Virus record (IMG/VR): IMGVR_UViG_2802429253_000016
Span: 1 to 10,011 of that record
Length of the DNA: 10,011 nucleotides
Strand: one strand, 5' to 3'
Source: a virus
Lineage: Duplodnaviria; Heunggongvirae; Uroviricota; Caudoviricetes
Below the pieces are notes generated by a model. That model was not told where the DNA came from. It made no database searches and worked only from the letters and a program-made list of their open reading frames with translations. Position 1 is the stretch's first letter. Each line of letters begins with the position of its first letter. The translations under genes and the position numbers were made by a program. This document shows positions 1 through 10,011 of the stretch, piece after piece.

Positions 1-582
1 TTAAACTCTGCGCTGAAATTTCTTTTTTTCATTGGAGCACCTGTGTTGTTCTGAGGTGAGCATATCACCTCTGTTCAGGTGGCCAAATTCAGTGTGCCAC
101 TTCAGATTGAACGCAGCAGCAAGACGGCTGGCGGTATAGTTAATCCCCTCGTTGCGTGCTTCCGCACGTACTTCAGCCAGGAAAGCATCGGTGGCTGGGG
201 TTTGCGGCATCCTTCCGTCTATTGCGCAGATATACGCATCAGATAGTTCATCCTGCTCGCCATCAAACACGTAGCAACTCTGTACGATAAATTTATTCAG
301 CCCCGCATTCTCCGCCGCAAGCGCAGCAAGATTAGTCTCCAGCTCTGCAATGCGTTTGCTTTGGGCTTCCCGTTCATCCAGCAGTGCCAGCACGGTAGCC
401 GGATTGGCTGCTGCTATGAATCGCTTATTGGCGCGATTATCTGGTCCTGAGCATGATGCTATGTAGTAATTTGCGTTCAGTCCGGCATCAGCAATTACCC
501 CATAGTAATCATCAGAACACCATTCGCCAGGGGTTGCATTTTCTGCCGCCATTCGCAGTGCCTGGTAATTAATGTTGCTCAC
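1..582 (-). CDS. Phage accessory protein, tentatively ead/Ea22-like (coiled-coil middle, conserved NATPGEW and NPATVLALLD segments)
   Basis: Six-frame ORF 1..609. The preferred start is GTG at 580-582, preceded by AGGAGG (589-594) with a 6-nt spacer; the ATG at 609 has no SD. Stop TAA at 1-3. Family assignment is from memory and unverified. Confidence 0.55.
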   Translation of the reverse strand: MSNINYQALRMAAENATPGEWCSDDYYGVIADAGLNANYYIASCSGPDNRANKRFIAAANPATVLALLDEREAQSKRIAELETNLAALAAENAGLNKFIVQSCYVFDGEQDELSDAYICAIDGRMPQTPATDAFLAEVRAEARNEGINYTASRLAAAFNLKWHTEFGHLNRGDMLTSEQHRCSNEKKKFQRRV

Positions 583-874
583 TGGTTGCCTCCTGAAAAA
601 TAACTGCATGCCCCAGCTTCTCCGCCAGTGCCAGTTCTGCCTTAGCGCCTGCTGACCGCTGCCAGCCTTTCAGCATGTAAATCGCATCCACACAACGAAT
701 CATTGCCATGCAAATATCCATGTAGTGTGGCTGTGTCAGTCCGTCCGGAAGTACTGCCGGACTTAAGACGGTATGCCCTTCCCGTTTCAGTTCCTCTTCC
801 GCCTTGTGGAACGCCTCACGGTTGAAATTTTTATACCCGGTCATCGGACCAGCGATATAAACCCTCACCCTCAC
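569..874 (-). CDS. DUF4406-like / nucleoside 2-deoxyribosyltransferase-like small protein (101 aa)
   Basis: ORF with GTG start at 872-874 overlapping the upstream stop (GTGA), AGGAGG at 883-888. N-terminal YIAGPMTG motif and a GW-x-S-x-GA segment are typical of the DUF4406/deoxyribosyltransferase-like fold. Assignment from memory. Confidence 0.6.
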   Translation of the reverse strand: MRVRVYIAGPMTGYKNFNREAFHKAEEELKREGHTVLSPAVLPDGLTQPHYMDICMAMIRCVDAIYMLKGWQRSAGAKAELALAEKLGHAVIFQEATSEQH

Positions 875-1287
875 GCCATCACCTCCTGAAAATTACCCTG
901 ATAAAACGCCAGCACACGCTGCATAACCTTGCTTTTCCGGCACTCGCGACAGATTATGTTCTGACGTCTGTCGTAGCGGCGTATCTCTCCATCTGGTAAT
1001 GAATAAATCAGGTCAGGATCGCTCTTTTTCTTCACCGCCGCTTTCGACATCTTTTCGATGGCTTTTATCCAGTCCTTACGCGCCTGCGCTGAAGGGAATA
1101 TTCCATACCCTGAACCATATACAACACCACTGGCTACCAGCTCTTTCGTCAGAACTTCTATCAGATGTCTCGTCGCCCCAATTTCATTTTCCAGTTGTTT
1201 ACGCGTTTTCCGACCATCTCTGCGTACCAGTTCCACAATGCGCGCCTTCACTTCTTCCCGCTGTTCGGAAGTAAAAACTTTTGCCAC
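871..1287 (-). CDS. Hypothetical phage protein (138 aa), basic, possible N-terminal winged-helix and a C-terminal CxxC
   Basis: ORF starting with GTG (1285-1287) 4 nt after AGGAGG (1292-1297). It is co-oriented and tightly packed with the replication gene; no family recognised. Confidence 0.55.
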   Translation of the reverse strand: MAKVFTSEQREEVKARIVELVRRDGRKTRKQLENEIGATRHLIEVLTKELVASGVVYGSGYGIFPSAQARKDWIKAIEKMSKAAVKKKSDPDLIYSLPDGEIRRYDRRQNIICRECRKSKVMQRVLAFYQGNFQEVMA

Positions 1288-1327
1288 AAGTCCTCCTGAA
1301 AATTACCTCATGATCTGAAATAAACAC

Positions 1328-2275
1328 TTACCCCCTGAAGCCCGGCGGAATTTCGGTATCCGGTTCAGAAATGTGATTCACGCAACGCTGTACAGGCGAA
1401 CGCCCCAGACGAATAACCAGCTCATCCCATTTTTCGCGAAGCTTTGACGGGCTCATGACGTTTTTTACCCAGAATGGATCCCGCTGTACCCGACCAAACA
1501 TTTCGCAAATTTGTCTGTGAGTTCTGCCATCCAGCATCCGCATTGTGCGCACATCATTGGCCCATGCAGTCCAGTTGGGTTCTTTCGGTCGCATGATTTC
1601 GCCATCATCGCTGGCAGCCTGCTCGTAAAGACTCACGATTCGTCCCCAGATCCACTGCGCACACGCTAAATCTTCCTGGCTACCCCACTGGCGTTTTTTC
1701 GCACTGAACACAACCGCGTCAGGGTGTCGGGTTAAAAAATCCTGTTCAGCCGTCTGCGAGTCCGGTTGCGAAGCTTCCGGACGAAAAGATCTTTTATCTG
1801 ACGGATCAGGTTTTAATACTGACGGATCGGGGCCAACCATCGCCCCCCTATCCGGCTGTTTTTTATCAATGGTTGATCCATCAAAATTTGAGGGGTCAAC
1901 CGTTGAGGGGGCAATATTTGACGGGTCATTTTTTGCCTGGCTAATTTTTCTTTTCGGTTTATATGCCTCACGCGCCGCCGCTGCTGCTGCTTCTAGTTTT
2001 TCCACATTAAGACGGTAGATATTGCTTACATTACGCCCACCGACCTTACGTTCCTCCTTCGTCAGCCAGCCGTTCTTTTCCAGTTCCGCTATCGCAGCTT
2101 TAACCGTTGATTCACTCTTTGCCCCAATCTGACGACGAATGGTCTCCACTGCAGGCCATGACACACCTTCGTCATTGCTGTAATCTGCAAGGCGAGCCAT
2201 TACTGCCACCCTGGATAAGATCATGCCGGTGAAGGCGCACCCTTCCCAGACAAGACCATGAAGCTTGCTGCTCAT
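1328..2275 (-). CDS. Replication initiation protein: N-terminal winged-helix domain, iteron-encoded linker, C-terminal DnaT-like (primosomal protein I-like) domain
   Basis: 315-aa ORF with ATG at 2275 and GGAG SD. The C-terminus ...VNHISEPDTEIPPGFRG matches the DnaT C-terminal signature as recalled. The internal iteron cluster plus AT-rich tract is the same arrangement as ori inside lambda O. The N-terminal wHTH resembles phage replication proteins. Confidence 0.85.
   Translation of the reverse strand: MSSKLHGLVWEGCAFTGMILSRVAVMARLADYSNDEGVSWPAVETIRRQIGAKSESTVKAAIAELEKNGWLTKEERKVGGRNVSNIYRLNVEKLEAAAAAAREAYKPKRKISQAKNDPSNIAPSTVDPSNFDGSTIDKKQPDRGAMVGPDPSVLKPDPSDKRSFRPEASQPDSQTAEQDFLTRHPDAVVFSAKKRQWGSQEDLACAQWIWGRIVSLYEQAASDDGEIMRPKEPNWTAWANDVRTMRMLDGRTHRQICEMFGRVQRDPFWVKNVMSPSKLREKWDELVIRLGRSPVQRCVNHISEPDTEIPPGFRG
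1796..1966. repeat. Origin-like iteron cluster (TGACGGATC-type 9-mers) followed by an AT-rich tract, embedded in the initiator gene
   Basis: Direct copies TGACGGATC (1799-1807, 1820-1828), TGAGGGGTC (1889-1897), TGAGGGGGC (1904-1912), TGACGGGTC (1919-1927), with 15-bp phasing for the last three, plus an inverted copy (1875-1883, gatccatca). Followed by ttttttgcctggctaatttttcttttcggtttatat (1928-1964). They encode the repeated DPS motifs in the protein linker. Confidence 0.7.
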
Positions 2276-2298
2276 AAAAAACTCCGAACACCGTGCTT

Positions 2299-2724
2299 TT
2301 AGTGCATCACCAGGGCATTTCCCGCCGGACCACCACGATTCATCTGATTGAAACCAGCGATCGCCACTGCGACAAAATCATCAGCGTCTCTCACCAGTCG
2401 TTCCCGCGTCTCCACCAGCTCCCGAAAATAGGCTGAACTGTGGCTGCGCATTCGGGCCACCAGCAGAGGTGGCATTGCTTTTTCGATCGCTGGTAACAAC
2501 GCCTGAATTTTTTTAACCGCATCAGGGGTGTCTTTCTCCACCCAGCGGAAAATCTTCTGAGTATTGCGAGCCAGGGCTTCTGGGTGTGAATCGTCGTACA
2601 GTTCCGGAAACGTCATACCCAGTTCAAAATAAGCCCGGGTTATTTCAGCTGCCGGAACTTTTTCTCCGTCCGGATGCGCCCAGGCATTCATCGCCATGCG
2701 GATGTGCTCATGCTTGATTTTCAT
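2299..2724 (-). CDS. YdaT-like protein (CII-type regulator analogue), 141 aa
   Basis: ORF immediately downstream of the cro-like gene with a 4-nt ATGA start/stop overlap at 2721-2724, the position occupied by cII in lambda and by ydaT in Rac-type prophages. Family call from memory. Confidence 0.65.
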   Translation of the reverse strand: MKIKHEHIRMAMNAWAHPDGEKVPAAEITRAYFELGMTFPELYDDSHPEALARNTQKIFRWVEKDTPDAVKKIQALLPAIEKAMPPLLVARMRSHSSAYFRELVETRERLVRDADDFVAVAIAGFNQMNRGGPAGNALVMH

Positions 2725-2948
2725 GAATCACTCTTCCTTTCGCTCTGAGTGGTATCCTTCTTTTTGTAAAGCTCTGGGTTCAAAGATAATTTTCCCTTGG
2801 AGTATGCAGCAGCTTCCGCAGCTCTCCCTTTCGGAACTATTTCACCGGGGCGCTTACGCCACATGTAAATAGCTTCGCGGGTTATCCCATAAAAATCAGC
2901 GACCCTCTGAACAGAGCCAAAAAACTGAACAAGTTCATCAACTCGCAT
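2721..2948 (-). CDS. Cro/DicC/YdaS-like small HTH regulator (75 aa)
   Basis: First gene of the leftward operon, divergent from the repressor. SD AGGAGG (2954-2959) 5 nt before ATG at 2948. Small, basic, HTH-like N-terminus. Confidence 0.75.
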   Translation of the reverse strand: MRVDELVQFFGSVQRVADFYGITREAIYMWRKRPGEIVPKGRAAEAAAYSKGKLSLNPELYKKKDTTQSERKSDS

Positions 2949-3044
2949 TTCACCCTCCTAAAATCTAAGTATTTTTAGATTACAGGATAATTTTTTTTAG
3001 GTCAATGCGATCTAAAATAATTTATATTCAACTCGCGGGAGAAA
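2949..3044. promoter_or_regulatory. Divergent immunity control region (oR-like) with 18-bp palindromic operators and pR/pRM-type promoters
   Basis: Operator ATCTAAGTATTTTTAGAT (2963-2980, perfect 6-6-6 palindrome) and ATCTAAAATAATTTATAT (3010-3027). On the minus strand TTGACC (3005-3000), a 17-nt spacer and TAATCT (2982-2977) form a candidate pR overlapping the first operator. TATATT at 3023-3028 is a candidate pRM -10. Confidence 0.6.
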
Positions 3045-3692
3045 ATGATGGAAAGCCTTGGCATCAGGCTTAAGAAACTCAGAAAAGATAAGGGACTCAC
3101 CCAAGTAGAACTGGGTAAGCTTTCAGGCGTGACTGGGGTTACTATAGGGTACTGGGAGAAAGATCTAAACGAACCCGGCAGCAAAGCTCTAAGTAAGTTA
3201 GCCCAAGCATTAGGAACTACTGAGTCCTATCTCCTGTATGGAGTATCGTCTCCTGAACTATCTTTTGTGCAGAGCAATCCAGGCACCAAGATCCCCTACT
3301 TTTCGTGGGGTGACGCGATTTCTTTCCTAATCTTAGAAGGAGAGAAAACAATGGGAAATGTCGATAGGATCACCACATTCTTTGATGTAGTGGAAGGTGA
3401 TTTTGCCGTTTCAATGCCTGATGACACTATGCATAACCCCTCAGGGTCGCCAAGTATCCCAGTTGGTGCCACTGTGATCCTAAGACCAGGAGAAAGTTAT
3501 AAAAATGGCAGTATCGTCGCTGTAATAGTTCCAGATCCTCTTACAAATGAACCGTCTATGACTATAAAAAAATTAGTTATTGATGGAAAACTTGTGTATT
3601 TAAGCCCTCTCAATCCGCGCTATCAATCATCCTTGCTTACGCCAGAGTGTAAAATTGTTGCCGTAGCAAAAGGTGTACAGTTCAACCTATAA
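3045..3692 (+). CDS. CI-type phage repressor: N-terminal XRE-family HTH plus C-terminal S24 (LexA-like) autopeptidase domain
   Basis: 215-aa ORF. N-terminus has an HTH (LTQVELGKLSGVTGVTIGYWE). C-terminus has VSM (Ser nucleophile context) and TIKKLVIDGKLVYLSPLNP, aligning with lambda CI GNSM and FKKLIRDSGQVFLQPLNP (Ser/Lys dyad). The second ATG at 3048 has better SD spacing (GGGAG 3037-3041). Confidence 0.9.
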   Translation: MMESLGIRLKKLRKDKGLTQVELGKLSGVTGVTIGYWEKDLNEPGSKALSKLAQALGTTESYLLYGVSSPELSFVQSNPGTKIPYFSWGDAISFLILEGEKTMGNVDRITTFFDVVEGDFAVSMPDDTMHNPSGSPSIPVGATVILRPGESYKNGSIVAVIVPDPLTNEPSMTIKKLVIDGKLVYLSPLNPRYQSSLLTPECKIVAVAKGVQFNL

Positions 3693-3713
3693 CCCTGCCA
3701 TGTTCTTGAACTT

Positions 3714-3740
3714 AAGGTCGGTTATGCCGACCTTTTTTTT
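3714..3740 (+). terminator. Rho-independent terminator downstream of the repressor gene
   Basis: Stem AAGGTCGG (3714-3721), loop TTATG, CCGACCTT (3727-3734), followed by TTTTTT (3735-3740). Confidence 0.75.
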
Positions 3741-3759
3741 AAATTAATTTAGATTCCTC

Positions 3760-3788
3760 TTGACTATAAAACTAAATACTTTTAGATT
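3760..3788 (+). promoter_or_regulatory. pL-like promoter with overlapping operator (oL-like)
   Basis: TTGACT (3760-3765), 17-nt spacer, TAGATT (3783-3788). Operator AACTAAATACTTTTAGAT (3770-3787) has the same 6-6-6 architecture as the oR sites. Confidence 0.5.
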
Positions 3789-3970
3789 TATTGCATGCCA
3801 ACCCATCCCGTCCCCACAGAATGCAGGGCAATACTTCGAGTTACCAGGCAGTGGTCAGGGGTTAAGTAGCCAGCCCGAGGCGTAAGAACATGACGGCAGG
3901 GTTCAACTTTAATAACTATGCAGCAGGTTTTTGTTCCGCTACCCCGGCGTTAAGGGGAAATGAGGTCAAC

Positions 3971-4126
3971 ATGGATACTATCGATCTTGGCAACAACGAA
4001 TCTCTGGTGTACGGCGTGTTTCCCAACCAGGACGGCACATTCACCGCGATGACGTATACCAAAAGCAAAACGTTTAAAACCGAAAATGGTGCCCGTCGCT
4101 GGCTGGAAAGAAACTCAGGTGAGTGA
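3971..4126 (+). CDS. ydfA: YdfA-like small protein (DUF1391), 51 aa
   Basis: Internal ATG at 3971 with GAGG (3962-3965) 5 nt upstream. The product MDTIDLGNNESLVYGVFPNQDGTFTAMTYTKSKTFKTENGARRWLERNSGE matches the Qin prophage YdfA as recalled. The longer ORF from 3890 lacks an SD. Confidence 0.75.
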   Translation: MDTIDLGNNESLVYGVFPNQDGTFTAMTYTKSKTFKTENGARRWLERNSGE

Positions 4127-4127
4127 T

Positions 4128-4256
4128 ATGGATTTCGACACAATCATGGAAAAGGCTTACGAAGAATACTTCGAAGGCCTTGCCGAAGGCGAAGAAGCTC
4201 TCAGCTTCAGTGAGTTTAAACAGGCGCTTTCCAGTTCGGCAAAATCTAACGGCTGA
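4128..4256 (+). CDS. ydfB: YdfB-like small protein, 42 aa (not in the supplied ORF track)
   Basis: ATG at 4128 two nt after the ydfA stop. It encodes MDFDTIMEKAYEEYFEGLAEGEEALSFSEFKQALSSSAKSNG, with stop TGA at 4254-4256. Length and position match Qin ydfB as recalled. Confidence 0.65.
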   Translation: MDFDTIMEKAYEEYFEGLAEGEEALSFSEFKQALSSSAKSNG

Positions 4257-4285
4257 TAAGCGAAACAGCACCGCGAGGAATCAGT

Positions 4286-4501
4286 ATGCAGAAACCAGAA
4301 CCCATCATCATCGCACCAGGCTATACCGATGATGAAATTTACGAATGGATGTGCGGGAAGATACGCGCCATTAATGACCTGAAGCAGGCTGCTGACTATA
4401 AAGAGCGCCTCTCTAAAGAACTGGCGTCAGCGGAGCAGGATATTACCACTCTGGCAAAAAGCGCGGCATTAAACGTTTCACGAGTGAATGAAAACTACTG
4501 A
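4286..4501 (+). CDS. ydfC: YdfC-like small protein, 71 aa
   Basis: ATG at 4286 with GAGGAA (4275-4280) 5 nt upstream; third gene of the dicB-type operon. Confidence 0.8.
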   Translation: MQKPEPIIIAPGYTDDEIYEWMCGKIRAINDLKQAADYKERLSKELASAEQDITTLAKSAALNVSRVNENY

Positions 4502-4516
4502 CTGATGAGGTTGACG

Positions 4517-4846
4517 ATGGAATTTAAAGATTTACCAATACCATTCCAGGAAATGGCAGCGAATATAGTTCGTTCCCAACTGGCGACTCTTGACCTGAGT
4601 ACCGTAGAAAAAGAAACCATCGATAATATATCCGGTAACGTGCGTCGCGCCTTTATCGGGTTGTACGAAGAGAAGCAACTCTCTGATAACCAGGATTTGC
4701 ATGAAAAATACTTCCTGGAATTAATGAACATCATTGATAAGGGGTTTGGCTTGTTAATGAAAAAGAAAGGGATTCGAATAGAACCCCTTGAAAATTACTT
4801 TGCAACAAAAAGCATTAATTCTTTTGATTCAAAACAAGAGAATTAA
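4517..4846 (+). CDS. Hypothetical protein (109 aa) in an AT-rich insertion; function unknown
   Basis: ATG at 4517 with GAGG (4507-4510) and a 6-nt spacer (the ORF track starts at 4505). Markedly AT-rich relative to flanking DNA. Its 3' end overlaps the convergent ORF by 32 nt. Confidence 0.5.
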   Translation: MEFKDLPIPFQEMAANIVRSQLATLDLSTVEKETIDNISGNVRRAFIGLYEEKQLSDNQDLHEKYFLELMNIIDKGFGLLMKKKGIRIEPLENYFATKSINSFDSKQEN

Positions 4847-5090
4847 TAACAGATTTAACATGCTCTTTCTCATGATTGAAGCTCTCATGATTGAAAGCGC
4901 CGGGTTGAAGCGAGTCGATATAATCAACAAGACTCTGTCGTACGACTTCATTTTTATCCATAACAGATGCAAGAAATGAAATTGCTAAAAGAGTTATATC
5001 ACTACGCGCCGCAGCATGCTGCAATGCTTTATCAAAATTATTAATCTGGCGTATCAGGGAGTTAATGATTTCATTATTTTCAGTCGACAT
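4815..5090 (-). CDS. Hypothetical protein (91 aa), antisense-oriented within the pL operon; function unknown
   Basis: ATG at 5088-5090 preceded by AGGAGGG (5096-5102) with a 5-nt spacer; this RBS context (AGGAGGGTGAAATG) is identical to that of the cro-like gene. The longer ORF to 5168 has no SD. AT-rich. Confidence 0.5.
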   Translation of the reverse strand: MSTENNEIINSLIRQINNFDKALQHAAARSDITLLAISFLASVMDKNEVVRQSLVDYIDSLQPGAFNHESFNHEKEHVKSVINSLVLNQKN

Positions 5091-5421
5091 TTCACCCTCC
5101 TGAGGGTTGGTGATTAAGGAGTTCTCCACGGGTGAGGTGGAGTGCGTGCGCCGGACACGGGTGAGCATCCGGCACTGACAGTTTACTGAAAGGATATATC
5201 CCTGAAAAGTCAGGGCATAACGCGAAAGCGCACGGCGAAGTTCTTCTGTCTATACGGTGTCGTTAAATTTAATTCGACCGTGCGCTTCCGGTTGTGGCAC
5301 TCCGCGAAATGGCGCGGCGGTAAGTATGGCGGGGTTATTCCTTCCCCGTTGAGGACACCGGGTTGTCAGGTTGACCATACGCTTAAGTGACACCCCCGCT
5401 GCAACGCCCTCTGTTATCAAT

Positions 5422-5477
5422 TTTCTGGTGACGTTTGGCGGCATCTGTTTGCCCATGAACTGATGCCCGCCCTTTTT
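5422..5477 (+). ncRNA. dicF: DicF-like small regulatory RNA with intrinsic terminator
   Basis: The 5' segment TTTCTGGTGACGTTTGGCGG matches the DicF 5' end as recalled. Hairpin GGCGGCATC (5437-5445) / GATGCCCGCC (5462-5471), then CTTTTT. It sits between ydfC and dicB, as in the Qin dicB operon. Confidence 0.7.
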
Positions 5478-5479
5478 AA

Positions 5480-5631
5480 AGTGAATTTTGTGATGCGGTG
5501 AATGCGGCTCAGCGCACGCGGAACAGTTAAAACCAAAAACAGTGTTATGGGTGGATTCTCTGTATCCGGCGTTAATTGTTAACTGGTTAACGTCACCTGG
5601 AGGCACCAGGCACCGCATCACAAAATTCATT
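5480..5631 (+). promoter_or_regulatory. Long-range RNA stem (about 20 bp) enclosing about 110 nt between DicF and the dicB RBS; candidate RNase III processing or translational control structure
   Basis: 5482-5500 tgaattttgtgatgcggtg is the exact reverse complement of 5611-5629 caccgcatcacaaaattca, extendable by a G-U and an A-U pair. The 3' arm ends 5 nt before the dicB SD (GAGGA, 5635-5639). Confidence 0.5.
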
Positions 5632-5646
5632 GTTGAGGACGCGATA

Positions 5647-5835
5647 ATGGAAACGTTATTACCAAACGTTAATACGTCTGAAGGTTGTTTTGAAATTGGT
5701 GTCAGAATCAGTAACTCTGCATTTACTGAAGATGCCATTAACAAGAGAAAACACGAACGGGAGTTATTAAATAAAATATGCATTCTTTCAATGCTGGCAC
5801 GTTTACGCCCGATGCAAAAAGGATGCTGGCAATGA
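5647..5835 (+). CDS. dicB: DicB cell-division inhibitor (62 aa)
   Basis: ATG at 5647 with GAGGA 7 nt upstream. The product METLLPNVNTSEGCFEIGV...NKICILSMLARLRPMQKGCWQ matches DicB as recalled. The ORF-track N-terminal extension from 5542 is non-coding leader. Confidence 0.85.
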   Translation: METLLPNVNTSEGCFEIGVRISNSAFTEDAINKRKHERELLNKICILSMLARLRPMQKGCWQ

Positions 5836-6035
5836 ATACAGCAATTGCTCTCACTCTGACAGTTTTTCTTAATACGGGCGAGCCTGTTGACCTGGTTATT
5901 GACATTTACGGTTCAATGAAAGAATGCACGGCTGCCGCAGCGGAACAGAAAATTCCCGGTAACTGTTATCCGGTTGATAAAGTTATTCATATGGACAATA
6001 ACGAAATCCCGGCAGGACTTAAAACAGCACCGTAA
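5832..6035 (+). CDS. ydfD: YdfD-like small protein (67 aa; prophage lysis-associated protein in K-12)
   Basis: ATG at 5832 overlaps the dicB stop (ATGA). The product MNTAIALTLTVFLNTGEPVDLVIDIYGSMKEC... matches YdfD as recalled. Confidence 0.7.
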   Translation: MNTAIALTLTVFLNTGEPVDLVIDIYGSMKECTAAAAEQKIPGNCYPVDKVIHMDNNEIPAGLKTAP

Positions 6036-6115
6036 TTAATATCCGGTTTCATTTTTATATGCCAGCAATGGCAGGGATTTGTTCACCCTTAAATCTGTAA
6101 TGAGGTTAAAACAAA

Positions 6116-8590
6116 ATGAGTAAAGTCTTTATTTGCGCCGCCATTCCGGACGAACAGGCAACAGCAGAAGGCGCTAAACCTGTGGCCACTGCCATTGAAG
6201 CAGGCGACGAACGCCGGGCAAGAGCCAAATTTAGCTGGTTATTTCTGGAACAATACCCGGAAACTCAGGACTGTGCTTATAAATTTCTTGTCTGCGAGGA
6301 TAAACCCGGCATGGCCCGCCCTGCTCTCGATTCCTGGGATTCCGAATATATGCAGGAAAACCGCTGGAATGAGGAGTCGGCTTCCTTTGTTCCGGTCGAC
6401 CCTGAACCGGATACAGAAACTGTTAACTTTAATCAGTTATCTGACGACAAGCGGGCTGCTGTCCTTGTCAGGTTCGGTACACATGAAAACATCACCGTGG
6501 ATATGGTCATCAATGCAAGCGGGCTTCTCGGCGATGACGAGATGACGACTTTTGATGGACACCTCACTGAAGCAGTTATCCGGACCAGAGAAATTAACGC
6601 CATGTATCCTGAGCGTCAGACTGAGTACATCAACGATGCCAGACGTGATTTAAAACCAACAGCCAAATGGCCCGATGTTCAGGCGTATTTTCTCGAACGT
6701 AAAAAACGCATGGAAAAGGAGCGCAAAGAAGGTGGAGCATATAATTCCGTCGTCGATCTTGCCCGCGCCAGAGTCAACCGGCAAGGCACTGAAAACTCTG
6801 CAGGAAAAACTGACTCCGTAACTGCTGTCATTCGTCGCGAATACAAGCAGACATGGAAAACACTGGATGGCGAACTGGCCTACGCTCTCTGGCCTGGTGA
6901 TGTGGATGCCGGAAACGTTAACGGCAGCATCCATCGCTGGGCAAAAAATGAAGTTATCGACAACGACCGCGAAGACTGGAAGCGTATCTCGGCATCAATG
7001 CGCAAACAGCCTGATGCCCTTCGCTACGACCGCCAGACTATTTTTGGCCTTGTCCGTGAACGTCCGATCGACATTCACAAAGACCCTGTGGCACTGAACA
7101 AATACATTACTGAATACCTGACTACAAAGGGCGTGTTTGAAGATGAAGGAAGAAATCAGAGCGCAACTGATACTCTCTCGTCGCCAGTACCAGAAACTGA
7201 TGCAGTGGAAACGGCAATTCCGGACAACGAAAAAACCGAATGCAAAGTGGAAGTCGAACCATCTGTAGAGCGTGAGGGGCCATTCTACTTCCTCTTCACC
7301 GACAAGGATGGCGAAAAATACGGTCGCGCAAACAAACTTTCTGGTCTGAATAAGGCGCTGGCTGCCGGGGCTACTGAAATCACGAAAGAAGAATATTTTG
7401 CCCGCAAAAACGGCACATACTCAGGTTCACAACAAAATACTGGTGCATCTGACACGACCGCACAACCAGAGCCGGTAAAAGTTACCGCTGACGAAGTAAA
7501 CAAAATTATGCAGGCAGTCAGCCAGCCTGACGCCAATCAGTTGCTTGCTGCCTCTCGCGGAGAATTTGTTGCAGGGATTAGCGACCCGAATGATCCGAAA
7601 TGGGTGAAGGGGATTGAAACCCGCGATTCTGTGTACCAGAACCAGCAAGAAACGGAACAGAACGACCAGAAAGCGGAACAAAACAGCCAAAATGCGTTAC
7701 AAAACGAGCCAGAAACGAAACAATCCGAACCAGTAGCGCAACAAGAACCAGAAAAAACCTGCACCGCCTGCGGTCAGAGCGGTGGCGGCAACTGCCCTGA
7801 TTGTGGCGCGGTGATGGGCAACGCAACATATCAGGAAACATTCGATGAAGAGAATCAGGTTGAAGTTCAGGAAAATGATCCGGAGGAAATGGAAGGCGCT
7901 GAACATCCACACAAGGGGGACACTAGCGGCGCTCAGGACCACGCCAGCGATAGTGAAACTGGTGAGGCGGCAGATCCCTTAATTAATGTGAATGGTCATC
8001 ATAAAAGCACATCCACCAGTAGAGTGTGGTACCACCTGATGATCGACCTTGAAACGATGGGTAAAAAAAGTAATGCCCCCATCGTGGTTATTGGTGCTGT
8101 GTTCTTCGATCCGCAGACCGGGGAAATCGGGCCAACATTTTATATCGTTATCAGCCTGGTTGACGCTATGGACACGGGTGCTGTACCTGATGGTTCCACC
8201 ATCGAATGGTGGCTTGCTCAGTCCAGCGAAGCCAGATCTGCAATTTTAGTTGATCAGGTAAAACTGGTTGACGCTCTTATTCAATTTCGGGAATTCATCA
8301 ATGAGTACTCGAATGAAAAATTCGTTCAGGTATGGGGCAATGGTGCAACTTTCGACAACACTATTTTACGAACCTCGTACGAACGCCTGAACATCCCCTG
8401 CCCGTGGCGTTACTACAACGATCGCGATGTACGTACAATCGTTGAACTGGGAAAAACTATCGACTTCGATGCCAGAACAGTTATTCCATTTGAAGGCGTG
8501 CGCCACCATGCGCTGGATGATGCCCGTCACCAGGCGAAATACGTTTCAGCAATCTGGCAAAAACTGATCCCGAATCAGGCTGATTTTTAA
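6116..8590 (+). CDS. Large RecE/YdfE-like protein (824 aa) with a Q/E-rich low-complexity linker, a CxxC-x10-CxxC knuckle and a C-terminal DEDDh (DnaQ-like) 3'-5' exonuclease domain
   Basis: Single uninterrupted ORF. C-terminal motifs: Exo I MIDLETMG, Exo II WGNGATFDNTIL, Exo III RHHALDDARHQAKY. The N-terminus MSKVFICAAIPDE... resembles Qin YdfE, and the middle LLAASRGEF...CTACGQSGGGNCPDCGAVMG segment resembles RecE, both as recalled. It sits where exo/recE sits in lambdoid phages. Confidence 0.85.
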   Translation: MSKVFICAAIPDEQATAEGAKPVATAIEAGDERRARAKFSWLFLEQYPETQDCAYKFLVCEDKPGMARPALDSWDSEYMQENRWNEESASFVPVDPEPDTETVNFNQLSDDKRAAVLVRFGTHENITVDMVINASGLLGDDEMTTFDGHLTEAVIRTREINAMYPERQTEYINDARRDLKPTAKWPDVQAYFLERKKRMEKERKEGGAYNSVVDLARARVNRQGTENSAGKTDSVTAVIRREYKQTWKTLDGELAYALWPGDVDAGNVNGSIHRWAKNEVIDNDREDWKRISASMRKQPDALRYDRQTIFGLVRERPIDIHKDPVALNKYITEYLTTKGVFEDEGRNQSATDTLSSPVPETDAVETAIPDNEKTECKVEVEPSVEREGPFYFLFTDKDGEKYGRANKLSGLNKALAAGATEITKEEYFARKNGTYSGSQQNTGASDTTAQPEPVKVTADEVNKIMQAVSQPDANQLLAASRGEFVAGISDPNDPKWVKGIETRDSVYQNQQETEQNDQKAEQNSQNALQNEPETKQSEPVAQQEPEKTCTACGQSGGGNCPDCGAVMGNATYQETFDEENQVEVQENDPEEMEGAEHPHKGDTSGAQDHASDSETGEAADPLINVNGHHKSTSTSRVWYHLMIDLETMGKKSNAPIVVIGAVFFDPQTGEIGPTFYIVISLVDAMDTGAVPDGSTIEWWLAQSSEARSAILVDQVKLVDALIQFREFINEYSNEKFVQVWGNGATFDNTILRTSYERLNIPCPWRYYNDRDVRTIVELGKTIDFDARTVIPFEGVRHHALDDARHQAKYVSAIWQKLIPNQADF

Positions 8591-8654
8591 TGTTCAACCC
8601 CGGTCGTCGCCCACCAGCTATAGTGGCGGCGACCATGATTAGCGAACGACGCTC

Positions 8655-8903
8655 ATGGCAAGACTTATTCTGCTCACTGAGTGGGCAAAAGAGGAATTCA
8701 GTGAACCGGTCCCTACTCCGGGTACGTTAAGTAAATACGCTAAAGCCGGAATGATATTTCCTCTCCCCAAAAAAGTAGGAAGGCACTGGCGAGTGGATCC
8801 ACGCGCTCGCTTTGTCGGAATGGTAAACAAGCCTGAGGTGATCGCCACAGATCACCCTGCTTTGAAGAGGATACTGGAAGATGGCGCGCCCGCGAAAATA
8901 TAA
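8655..8903 (+). CDS. xis: Excisionase (Xis-like, 82 aa)
   Basis: Small basic protein immediately upstream of, and overlapping, int by 23 nt. LILLTEWAKEE...IFPLPKKVGRHWRV parallels lambda Xis LTLQEWNARQ...IFPPPVKDGREY. Confidence 0.8.
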   Translation: MARLILLTEWAKEEFSEPVPTPGTLSKYAKAGMIFPLPKKVGRHWRVDPRARFVGMVNKPEVIATDHPALKRILEDGAPAKI

Positions 8904-10011
8904 AACCGATGTTCCGGGTTTATCTCCGTATTTTGACAAAAGAAATAACAAAGTTTACTGGCGTTACAGGCATCCCATCACAGGTAAAAATCATGGACTC
9001 GGCAGTATTGACCAGAAACTGGCGGAAACCATTGCAGCAGAAGCGAACAGCCGTCTTGCCAGACAAAAAATGGAGCAAATGCTCAGTCTGCAGGAGAAAA
9101 TTATTAGTGATACCGGCGGCGCATCAACCGTTTCCATTTTTCTGAATAATTACAGAAAAATTCAACAGGAAAGATATGAGAACGGAGAAATCAAGCTCAG
9201 CACGCTGAAACAAAAAGCGGCTCCTCTCAGGGTGTTTGATGAACGTTTTGGAGCCAGGCCGCTAGATGCCATAACCGTAAAAGATGTGGTATCGGTGCTG
9301 GAAGAATACAAGGCAAAGGGACATAACAGAATGGGACAAATTTTCAGGAAGGTATTGATCGATGTTTTCCGGGAGGCTCAACAAACGGGTGATGTCCCGC
9401 CAGGCTTTAACCCGGCTGAATCGGCAAAAAAACCGCAAGTGCGGATATCAAGACAGCGACTGACTTTTGATGAGTGGATGATGATTTATAACGCAGCGGA
9501 AAAGGATGGTTACTTTTTACAGCGCGGCATGCTGCTGGCACTGATGACGGGCCAGCGTCTTTCGGATATTTGCAAAATGCAGTTTTCGGATATCCGGGAT
9601 GGTTACCTTCATGTCGAACAGCAAAAAACAGGAGCCCGGATAGCCATTCCTCTGGCTCTGCGTTGCGACAAATTAAATCTTACCCTGGGTGACGTGGTGT
9701 CATCCTGTCGTGATTACATCCTTAGTCCGTGGTTATTGCACCATCATCACGCTAAGGGGATGGGTAAGCGCGGCGGGATGGTTAAACCAGCAACGTTAAC
9801 AGTCGCATTTAAAAAAGCCCGGGATTCTGTGGATTACAACTGGCGTGCTAATGGCACGCCACCCTCTTTCCATGAGCAAAGATCTTTATCAGAACGATTG
9901 TTCAGAGAACAGGGAATTGATACCAAAATTTTGCTGGGCCATTCGAATCAAAAAATGACCGATATTTACAACGACGCACGCGGTAAAGAGTGGAAAAAAC
10001 TGGTTGTTTGA
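8881..10011 (+). CDS. int: Lambda-family tyrosine integrase (376 aa), apparently intact
   Basis: Collinear with lambda Int. N-terminal arm-binding region (YFDKRNNKVYWRYRHPITGK), TGQRLSDI (Arg), HEQRSLSERLF (His, Arg), LLGHSNQKMTDIY (His, Tyr nucleophile), and a C-terminal GKEWKK tail. Stop TGA at 10009-10011. Confidence 0.95.
   Translation: MARPRKYKTDVPGLSPYFDKRNNKVYWRYRHPITGKNHGLGSIDQKLAETIAAEANSRLARQKMEQMLSLQEKIISDTGGASTVSIFLNNYRKIQQERYENGEIKLSTLKQKAAPLRVFDERFGARPLDAITVKDVVSVLEEYKAKGHNRMGQIFRKVLIDVFREAQQTGDVPPGFNPAESAKKPQVRISRQRLTFDEWMMIYNAAEKDGYFLQRGMLLALMTGQRLSDICKMQFSDIRDGYLHVEQQKTGARIAIPLALRCDKLNLTLGDVVSSCRDYILSPWLLHHHHAKGMGKRGGMVKPATLTVAFKKARDSVDYNWRANGTPPSFHEQRSLSERLFREQGIDTKILLGHSNQKMTDIYNDARGKEWKKLVV

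Follow-up and report, generated by a model that had tools for sequence, protein, structure and literature searches.

Two prophage-encoded factors, DicB and DicF, inhibit cell division and also alter host metabolism and phage susceptibility, and the way in which their joint dicF-dicB transcript is divided sets the amount of each product. In the Qin prophage of Escherichia coli K-12, the full-length dicBF RNA is cut by RNase III to give a DicF of 72 nt (PMC5069750 and PMC9438474, citing Faubladier, Cam and Bouche 1990). The dicF-dicB spacer was named among the noted RNase III substrates in a review from 2009 (PMC2777011). In addition, the K-12 position 1649470, listed as 'intergenic dicF-dicB' and marked 'Known: Yes', has 0 reads in the wild type vs 26 reads in an rnc mutant (PMC5371410, Table S1). 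The mapping of the 72-nt species is taken here from these secondary citations, and the sizes were derived from S1 mapping and Northern blots.

RNase III also acts on the precursors of 16S and 23S rRNA, in which the flanking sequences form a long-range helix that is cut on both strands, freeing the structured RNA. In the lambda N leader, cleavage by RNase III relieves an inhibitory leader structure. The dicF-dicB spacer resembles this leader and the R sites of T7 in its placement: each RNase III site lies in an early, polycistronic phage transcript, shortly 5′ of a ribosome-binding site (RBS). However, the sites in T7 and lambda are local hairpins, whereas the dicF-dicB helix is long-range, with arms 110 nt apart that flank an independently folded RNA. 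It is like the rRNA precursor stems in that a long-range helix is built from the flanks of a structured RNA, but the enclosed RNA comprises about 110 nt and its release is predicted.

The dicBF module in the analyzed window

The window analyzed here is a 10,011-nt stretch of a virus of the Caudoviricetes (IMG/VR record IMGVR_UViG_2802429253_000016, positions 1 to 10,011). It comprises a lambdoid immunity and early-left region with Cro, an S24 repressor, YdfA, an exonuclease and an integrase. Homologues of DicB, YdfD and YdfA are located downstream of the repressor/Cro pair, which is the arrangement of a Qin-like dicBF operon. Besides the matches listed below, Pfam identified DUF1391 (97 bits), HTH_3 plus Peptidase_S24 in the repressor, and P22_Cro. 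The following features were located around the dicF-dicB spacer:

5422-5477 (+): DicF-like sRNA with a conserved 5′ seed, a variant terminator hairpin (~5437-5471) and a U-run (5473-5477); alignment with K-12 b1574, Rfam, centroid fold
5473-5479 (+): U-run plus AA, able to pair with 5633-5639 (UUGAGGA, which includes the Shine-Dalgarno sequence, SD); anchored helix search
5480-5500 (+): left (5′) arm of the 21-bp helix; repeat search, minimum free energy (MFE) fold, K-12 alignment, covariation, RNAalifold
5501-5610 (+): STnc100-like structured core with H1 (5504-5519), a variable middle, H4 and H5; Rfam STnc100, RNAalifold, covariation
5568-5576/5586-5594 (+): H4; covariation, RNAalifold
5596-5600/5606-5610 (+): H5 (CCUGG-AGGCA-CCAGG); RNAalifold
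5611-5631 (+): right (3′) arm of the 21-bp helix; repeat search, MFE fold, covariation, RNAalifold
5635-5649 (+): dicB RBS, with SD GAGGA at 5635-5639 and ATG at 5647-5649; sequence
5647-5835 (+): dicB, 62 aa; Pfam DicB, 124.3 bits
5832-6035 (+): ydfD-like gene; Pfam DUF1482, 70.2 bits

The initial annotation had already proposed a DicF-like RNA with its own terminator at 5422-5477, and both the alignment with K-12 dicF (b1574) and the folds place it there. The RNA starts at 5422, and its 53-nt form reaches to 5472, directly 5′ of the U-run. The first 13 nt (5422-5434) are identical to K-12, with single substitutions only at 5435 and 5439, and the terminator hairpin shows compensating differences. 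The element has the seed, the terminator hairpin with U-run and the site between ydfC-like genes and dicB that define DicF. In Rfam, DicF (RF00039) matches 5423-5472 with 35.9 bits (E 2.5e-6), a score that fails to reach the gathering value of 48 owing to a terminator hairpin unlike that of K-12; K-12 dicF itself scores 76.7 bits. The Rfam scan at gathering thresholds gave zero matches in the window, and DicF and STnc100 were found only in E-value mode. The DicF terminator was not called by a simple terminator scanner, since its stem is bulged; the hairpin is evident in the folds.

Several further elements were observed in the vicinity. A terminator-like hairpin (3714-3734) lies past the repressor gene, and a promoter-like site (3760-3788) just 5′ of the ydfA-like gene is likely the counterpart of dicBp. 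A 14-bp stem with one bulge can be formed by 5226-5239 and 5273-5287, and its 3′ arm overlaps the expected 5′ end (~5283-5288) of a 190-nt DicF, which in K-12 is the product of a second, upstream RNase III cut (PMC10448788). An ORF of 97 aa with a GTG start (5542-5835, +) runs in frame from within the core into dicB, and a publication which, going by its title, deals with 'translation of the division inhibitor from an in-phase internal start' fits this ORF. On the opposite strand, an ORF of 177 aa (5250-5783, -) covers the entire dicF-dicB region and is probably spurious.

Considering the whole window, no E. coli genome in the collection matched at least 80% of it at high identity, the best one covering 80% at 88% identity. 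Many E. coli genomes share the dicF-dicB segment at 93-98% identity. Judged from these identities, the dicBF module appears better conserved than its prophage surroundings.

A long-range helix between dicF and dicB

A repeat search identified a perfect inverted repeat with the arms 5482-5500 (TGAATTTTGTGATGCGGTG) and 5611-5629 (CACCGCATCACAAAATTCA), which are 19 nt long, 100% complementary and separated by 110 nt. By estimate, about 4e-7 perfect 19-mer inverted repeats are expected by chance in 450 nt (~1e5 position pairs x 4^-19). The MFE fold of 5400-5660 contains the same stem and lengthens it to 21 consecutive pairs (5480-5500/5611-5631) by G5481-U5630 and A5480-U5631. The fold has a z-score of -5.73, and 0 of 200 shuffles fold as well. 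The perfect pairing around ~110 nt had been described in the initial annotation and is reproduced exactly in arms and spacing; the 5 nt given there from the stem end to the dicB SD are correct for the perfect repeat, the distance from the 21-bp helix being 3 nt. With 19 of 21 pairs being Watson-Crick, the helix has the length of about two turns (~20-22 bp) and the largely Watson-Crick pairing of an RNase III signal.

In addition, two weak pairings of the SD were predicted. The segments 5473-5479 and 5633-5639 may pair across a 1-nt bulge, which would lengthen the helix to 28 pairs. Alternatively, in the MFE fold, GAGG of the SD is paired with CCUU at 5471-5474.

Correspondence to the RNase III site of K-12

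The region 5230-5850 shares ~95% identity with the dicF-dicB part of the Qin prophage in K-12. The two spacers are orthologous, sharing the gene order ydfA-...-dicF-dicB-ydfD, the arms and the core, and the start of DicF aligns at 5422. The arms differ from K-12 at two positions. In K-12 these form two adjacent G-U pairs, while the window has C-G and G-C there (left arm ..GATGCGGTG, right arm CACCGCATC), and the helix of the window is perfect because of this replacement. A further difference lies in the terminator hairpin of DicF, and the prophage around the window, with its S24 repressor, exonuclease and integrase, looks more intact than Qin.

Counting 72 nt from the 5′ end of DicF leads to K-12 position 1649453, which corresponds to about 5491 in the window, the tenth base of the 19-nt left arm. 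An error of up to ~9 nt in 3′ direction in the old sizes would still keep this end within the arm. The position 1649470 from the rnc comparison corresponds to 5508, 8 nt past the left arm, and its peak comprises only 26 reads.

The cleavage published for the K-12 orthologue agrees with the proposal of an RNase III-sensitive duplex whose cutting sets DicF apart from the dicB mRNA, and by this analogy the proposal is supported for the window. Since the spacer is orthologous to the documented dicF-dicB site of K-12, which was reported in 1990, the RNase III site was already known. The initial annotation is therefore right but not new in its interpretation and mostly re-derived known biology from the sequence. 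The additions made here are modest: the helix closes a conserved fold related to STnc100, and the design of a long helix followed by an RBS recurs.

Conservation and covariation of the helix

Homologous elements were collected by a motif scan with the 20-nt sequence CACCNGGAGGCACCNGGCAC, which forms the hairpin just 5′ of the right arm. The scan of public genome and viral contigs gave 240 loci. For the covariation analysis, 38 sequences with a long helix, 36 of them distinct, were aligned.

In the 36 distinct homologues, 98.7% of the cells in the 21-bp helix are paired, vs 34-43% after a shift of the 3′ partners by 1-3 columns; this percentage is inflated, as the members were picked for a long helix, but compensatory changes cannot arise in this way. 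Such changes on both sides with the pairing kept were found in 12 of the 21 helix pairs. The covariation score observed for the whole structure (21-bp helix, H4 and H5) was reached by 0 of 500 shuffles, and RNAalifold independently predicts the same 21-bp helix. Covariation of the arms had been set beforehand as the test on which the duplex would stand or fall, and the 12 covarying pairs leave it standing.

The non-Watson-Crick cells of the helix comprise 58 G-U/U-G, 5 A-C/C-A and 5 others. This asymmetry therefore points to selection on the plus strand RNA and not on a DNA element or on an RNA from the opposite strand. The arm sequences are wholly different among lineages, as shown by AGTGAATTTTGTGATGCGGTG in the window, CAACAGACCTTGCAATGCAGTG in locus L155, AAGCAGGTTTTAAGGTGTGGTG in L016 and AGCAGGCTTTAAGGTGCGGTG in L003. 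Despite these differing arms and differing downstream ORFs, the helix has a length of ~18-23 bp in about ten lineages. The feature is hereby confirmed as a real RNA helix.

Relationship of the enclosed core to STnc100

STnc100 is a prophage-borne sRNA family of the Gammaproteobacteria, and PasD was reported to be related to it (bioRxiv 10.64898/2026.05.13.724894). The Rfam model STnc100 (RF02076) matches 5470-5679 over its full length (model 1-206) with 37.7 bits and an E-value of 7.9e-7 in E-value mode. As the gathering score is 47, the window falls short of it and is not a member by the criterion of Rfam itself. The scores of the family are distributed as follows:

Canonical copies with the H5 motif: 59-88 bits
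L017, with a long helix: 47.8 bits
Window: 37.7 bits
Other lineages with a long helix: 35-39 bits
K-12 spacer: 34.4 bits

In the consensus structure of STnc100, the long-range helix of the window is the closing helix. Closing helix, H1, H4 and the H5 motif of the consensus are all present in the window, and the helices were recovered by RNAalifold. H4 is supported by covariation in 5 of 6 tested pairs, and H5 has pairs of U-A and G-C in the alignment as well as A-U in L040, a locus of the motif scan outside the alignment. Common to the window and STnc100 are thus the multi-hairpin core closed by a GGUG/CACC helix and the identical H5 motif CACCNGGAGGCACCNGGCAC. In contrast to the stand-alone copies, the closing helix of the window has 21 bp instead of 6-11, and the element lies within an operon, directly 5′ of an RBS, without a promoter or terminator of its own. 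It does not have the form of a stand-alone sRNA, since no terminator was found within 70 nt of the element and the dicB RBS comes next instead. Based on the model matches and the shared architecture, the dic-type spacer is regarded as a divergent relative of STnc100, which is left unlabelled by Rfam-based annotation because it scores just below the threshold.

A role of the core in antitermination, like that of nut or put sites, was considered and rejected, as the core sits downstream of the terminator that would have to be overridden. Additionally, H5 appears unlike boxB loops.

Within the core, CAGUUAA at 5524-5530, in the junction past H1, complements UUAACUG at 5579-5585 in the loop of H4 and is a candidate for a pseudoknot or an alternative pairing. 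Complements in the same place occur in L066 (GGCAAA/UUUGCC) and L016 (CAGC/GCUG). Family-wide, the mean complementarity is 7.3 nt vs 5.8 nt in shuffles, with an ambiguous register.

Two architectures of the family

A set of 175 unique elements, selected by the motif and the core, was sorted with simple pattern rules, and many of the long copies among them are close kin. The length of the closing helix is bimodal and tracks the genomic context. Stand-alone copies have a closing helix of 6-11 bp, whereas operon copies have ~18-23 bp, followed by an RBS and an ORF. The two classes were counted as follows:

Short helix (<12 bp): 124 unique copies; terminator within 70 nt, 66; SD and ORF within 60 nt, 10; promoter-like site upstream, 22
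Long helix (>=17 bp): 37 unique copies; terminator within 70 nt, 0; SD and ORF within 60 nt, 33; promoter-like site upstream, 0

Of the promoter-like sites belonging to short copies, 15 have a -10 hexamer whose end lies 5-9 nt 5′ of the helix base. The long class comprises about ten lineages, in which the downstream ORF is dicB or encodes 64, 73, 82, 91, 94 or 159 aa. Many of the long copies lie downstream of a DicF-type terminator, and the seeds vary. From these sequence contexts, the stand-alone copies are read by us as ordinary sRNA genes, and the operon copies may have gained a two-turn helix suited to RNase III.

Two other explanations of the helix have to be weighed at this point. The inverted repeat could act as DNA, whether as a recombination site, as an operator bound by a protein or by forming the two ends of a miniature mobile element. 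The STnc100-like copies are indeed dispersed and at times tandem, and the repeat is perfect in the window. However, the excess of G-U over A-C cells is sensible only for an RNA of the plus strand, the compensatory changes include the internal hairpins, and the matches are to covariance models; a function as mobile-element ends or operator was rejected due to the asymmetry and the compensatory changes and has hardly any probability left. The helix could also be a mere structural closing stem of an STnc100-type RNA, with a length that has no role in processing. This would explain why a closing helix anchored by GGUG/CACC is present in all family members and also in the Rfam consensus, but neither the dependence of its length on the context nor the published 72-nt end of DicF inside the arm would be expected, and such a purely structural stem is very improbable.

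Further observations concern the distribution of the family. STnc100 copies occur in tandem arrays (L051, 894-2010; L035, 3539-4072; L075, 225-1398). The Pantoea plasmid pAPP145_2 carries four copies in an array and two more elsewhere beside a tRNA gene, and three copies of the motif were found on a Superficieibacter contig. In a Shigella flexneri prophage (L028, 3005-3424), matches to isrK and to the C4 antisense RNA are located within ~100 nt past the long-helix element. In the P1-like phages P7 and D6 (records H65-H67), the match covers the core only.

Proposed processing and effect on dicB expression

The window holds the dicBF module from the early-left operon of a lambdoid prophage, in which most transcripts would end at the DicF terminator (5437-5477). 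In the read-through RNA, the 21 nt past the U-run (5480-5500) pair with 5611-5631 and close the 110-nt multi-hairpin domain related to STnc100. RNase III would cut both arms mid-helix, at ~5491 on the left and, as suggested by its 2-nt stagger, at ~5620-5623 on the right. Three products are expected from this. The first one would be the 72-nt DicF, whose single-stranded 3′ tail could be trimmed to the terminator hairpin. The second one would be a core of ~130 nt, presumably released, keeping 9-10 bp of the closing helix, which corresponds to the upper end of the range of 6-11 bp in stand-alone copies. The third one would be the dicB-ydfD mRNA, starting near 5620-5623 with a leader of ~25 nt.

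That RNase III cuts the two-turn helix of the dicBF read-through RNA into DicF-72, core and dicB-ydfD mRNA appears very probable as an overall explanation. The cleavage in the spacer was reported for the K-12 orthologue and is assumed by analogy for the window; the cut in the right arm, a freed core and the consequence for dicB are inferred. The K-12 data contain zero wild-type reads within the core (PMC5371410), which speaks weakly against an excised core that is stable in K-12, provided that library preparation did not remove small RNAs.

The possible effect on dicB was addressed by partition-function folding. For read-through RNA starting at 5422, 5285 or 5100, the SD has a mean unpaired probability of 0.18 and the AUG one of 0.01-0.02. 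In the RNA after the cut, starting at 5620-5625, the values are 0.63 and 0.31, respectively. The masking is predicted to come from the 3′ side of the terminator and the U-run, which pair weakly with the SD, plus a small hairpin on the AUG. Gating of dicB translation by the stem is a prediction from folding.

How cleavage would act on dicB can be read in different ways. Since SD and AUG are predicted to be more open after the cut, activation is favored, in which cleavage would unmask the SD and so permit translation of dicB, as RNase III does for lambda N. This reading is weakened by being a prediction, by the masking of the SD not being conserved across lineages, which share only the short distance between helix and RBS, and by RNase III cuts in 5′ UTRs mostly destabilizing the downstream message (PMC5371410); we consider the chances for it to be about even. 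Cleavage could instead mainly lower dicB expression, if the 5′-monophosphate leader speeds up decay by RNase E and keeps the toxic inhibitor low. The toxicity of DicB (PMC10448788) and the spacer reads, which are zero in the wild type vs 26 in the rnc mutant, speak for this. The predicted opening of SD and AUG by the cut speaks against it. Phage precedents such as the lambda N leader run in the opposite direction as well. On balance, lowering by cleavage is possible rather than probable.

Furthermore, the helix with its weak extension onto the SD might be a translational lock that hides the dicB RBS without any cleavage, cutting being incidental. In the uncleaved RNA, SD and AUG have the low predicted unpaired probabilities given above, and the U-run is able to pair with UUGAGGA. 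However, this pairing of the SD is weak (U-G, U-A) and unconserved, with the SD lying 3-20 nt past the helix in other long-helix lineages, the helix keeps to the roughly two turns that RNase III requires, and RNase III-dependent ends were reported in K-12. A lock of this kind is therefore unlikely. A reading that goes further than the processing proposed above regards the spacer as a divergent, operon-borne member of STnc100/PasD, whose helix was lengthened in about ten lineages and whose ~130-nt core is excised by RNase III like the rRNAs. It is put forward tentatively and is, in our judgment, somewhat improbable.

If the core is excised in this way, one cut would yield both DicF-72 and an mRNA of the downstream gene with a short leader; in the dicB copies, this gene encodes a toxic division inhibitor. 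STnc100-type RNAs would then have two routes of biogenesis, one by their own promoter and terminator and one by excision from an operon. The two-turn helix around a core directly 5′ of an RBS recurs before different genes in many enterobacterial prophages, and this recurring design gives a testable reason to ask whether RNase III controls the downstream translation and whether the excised core has a function.

Under the same assumption, a released core might have targets in trans, one candidate being the DicF seed, with which it could pair. The seed GGTGACGTT (5427-5435) is perfectly complementary to AACGTCACC (5589-5597) in the core over 9 nt. Covariation between seed and core gave no support for this pairing, as elements without an upstream DicF seed retain the same TTAACGTCACC, so that the support consists of the match itself. 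Finally, a second part of DicF, ACGTTTGG (5431-5438), complements CCAAACGT (5662-5669) in codons 6-8 of dicB, and this pairing is used by the MFE fold of the read-through RNA.
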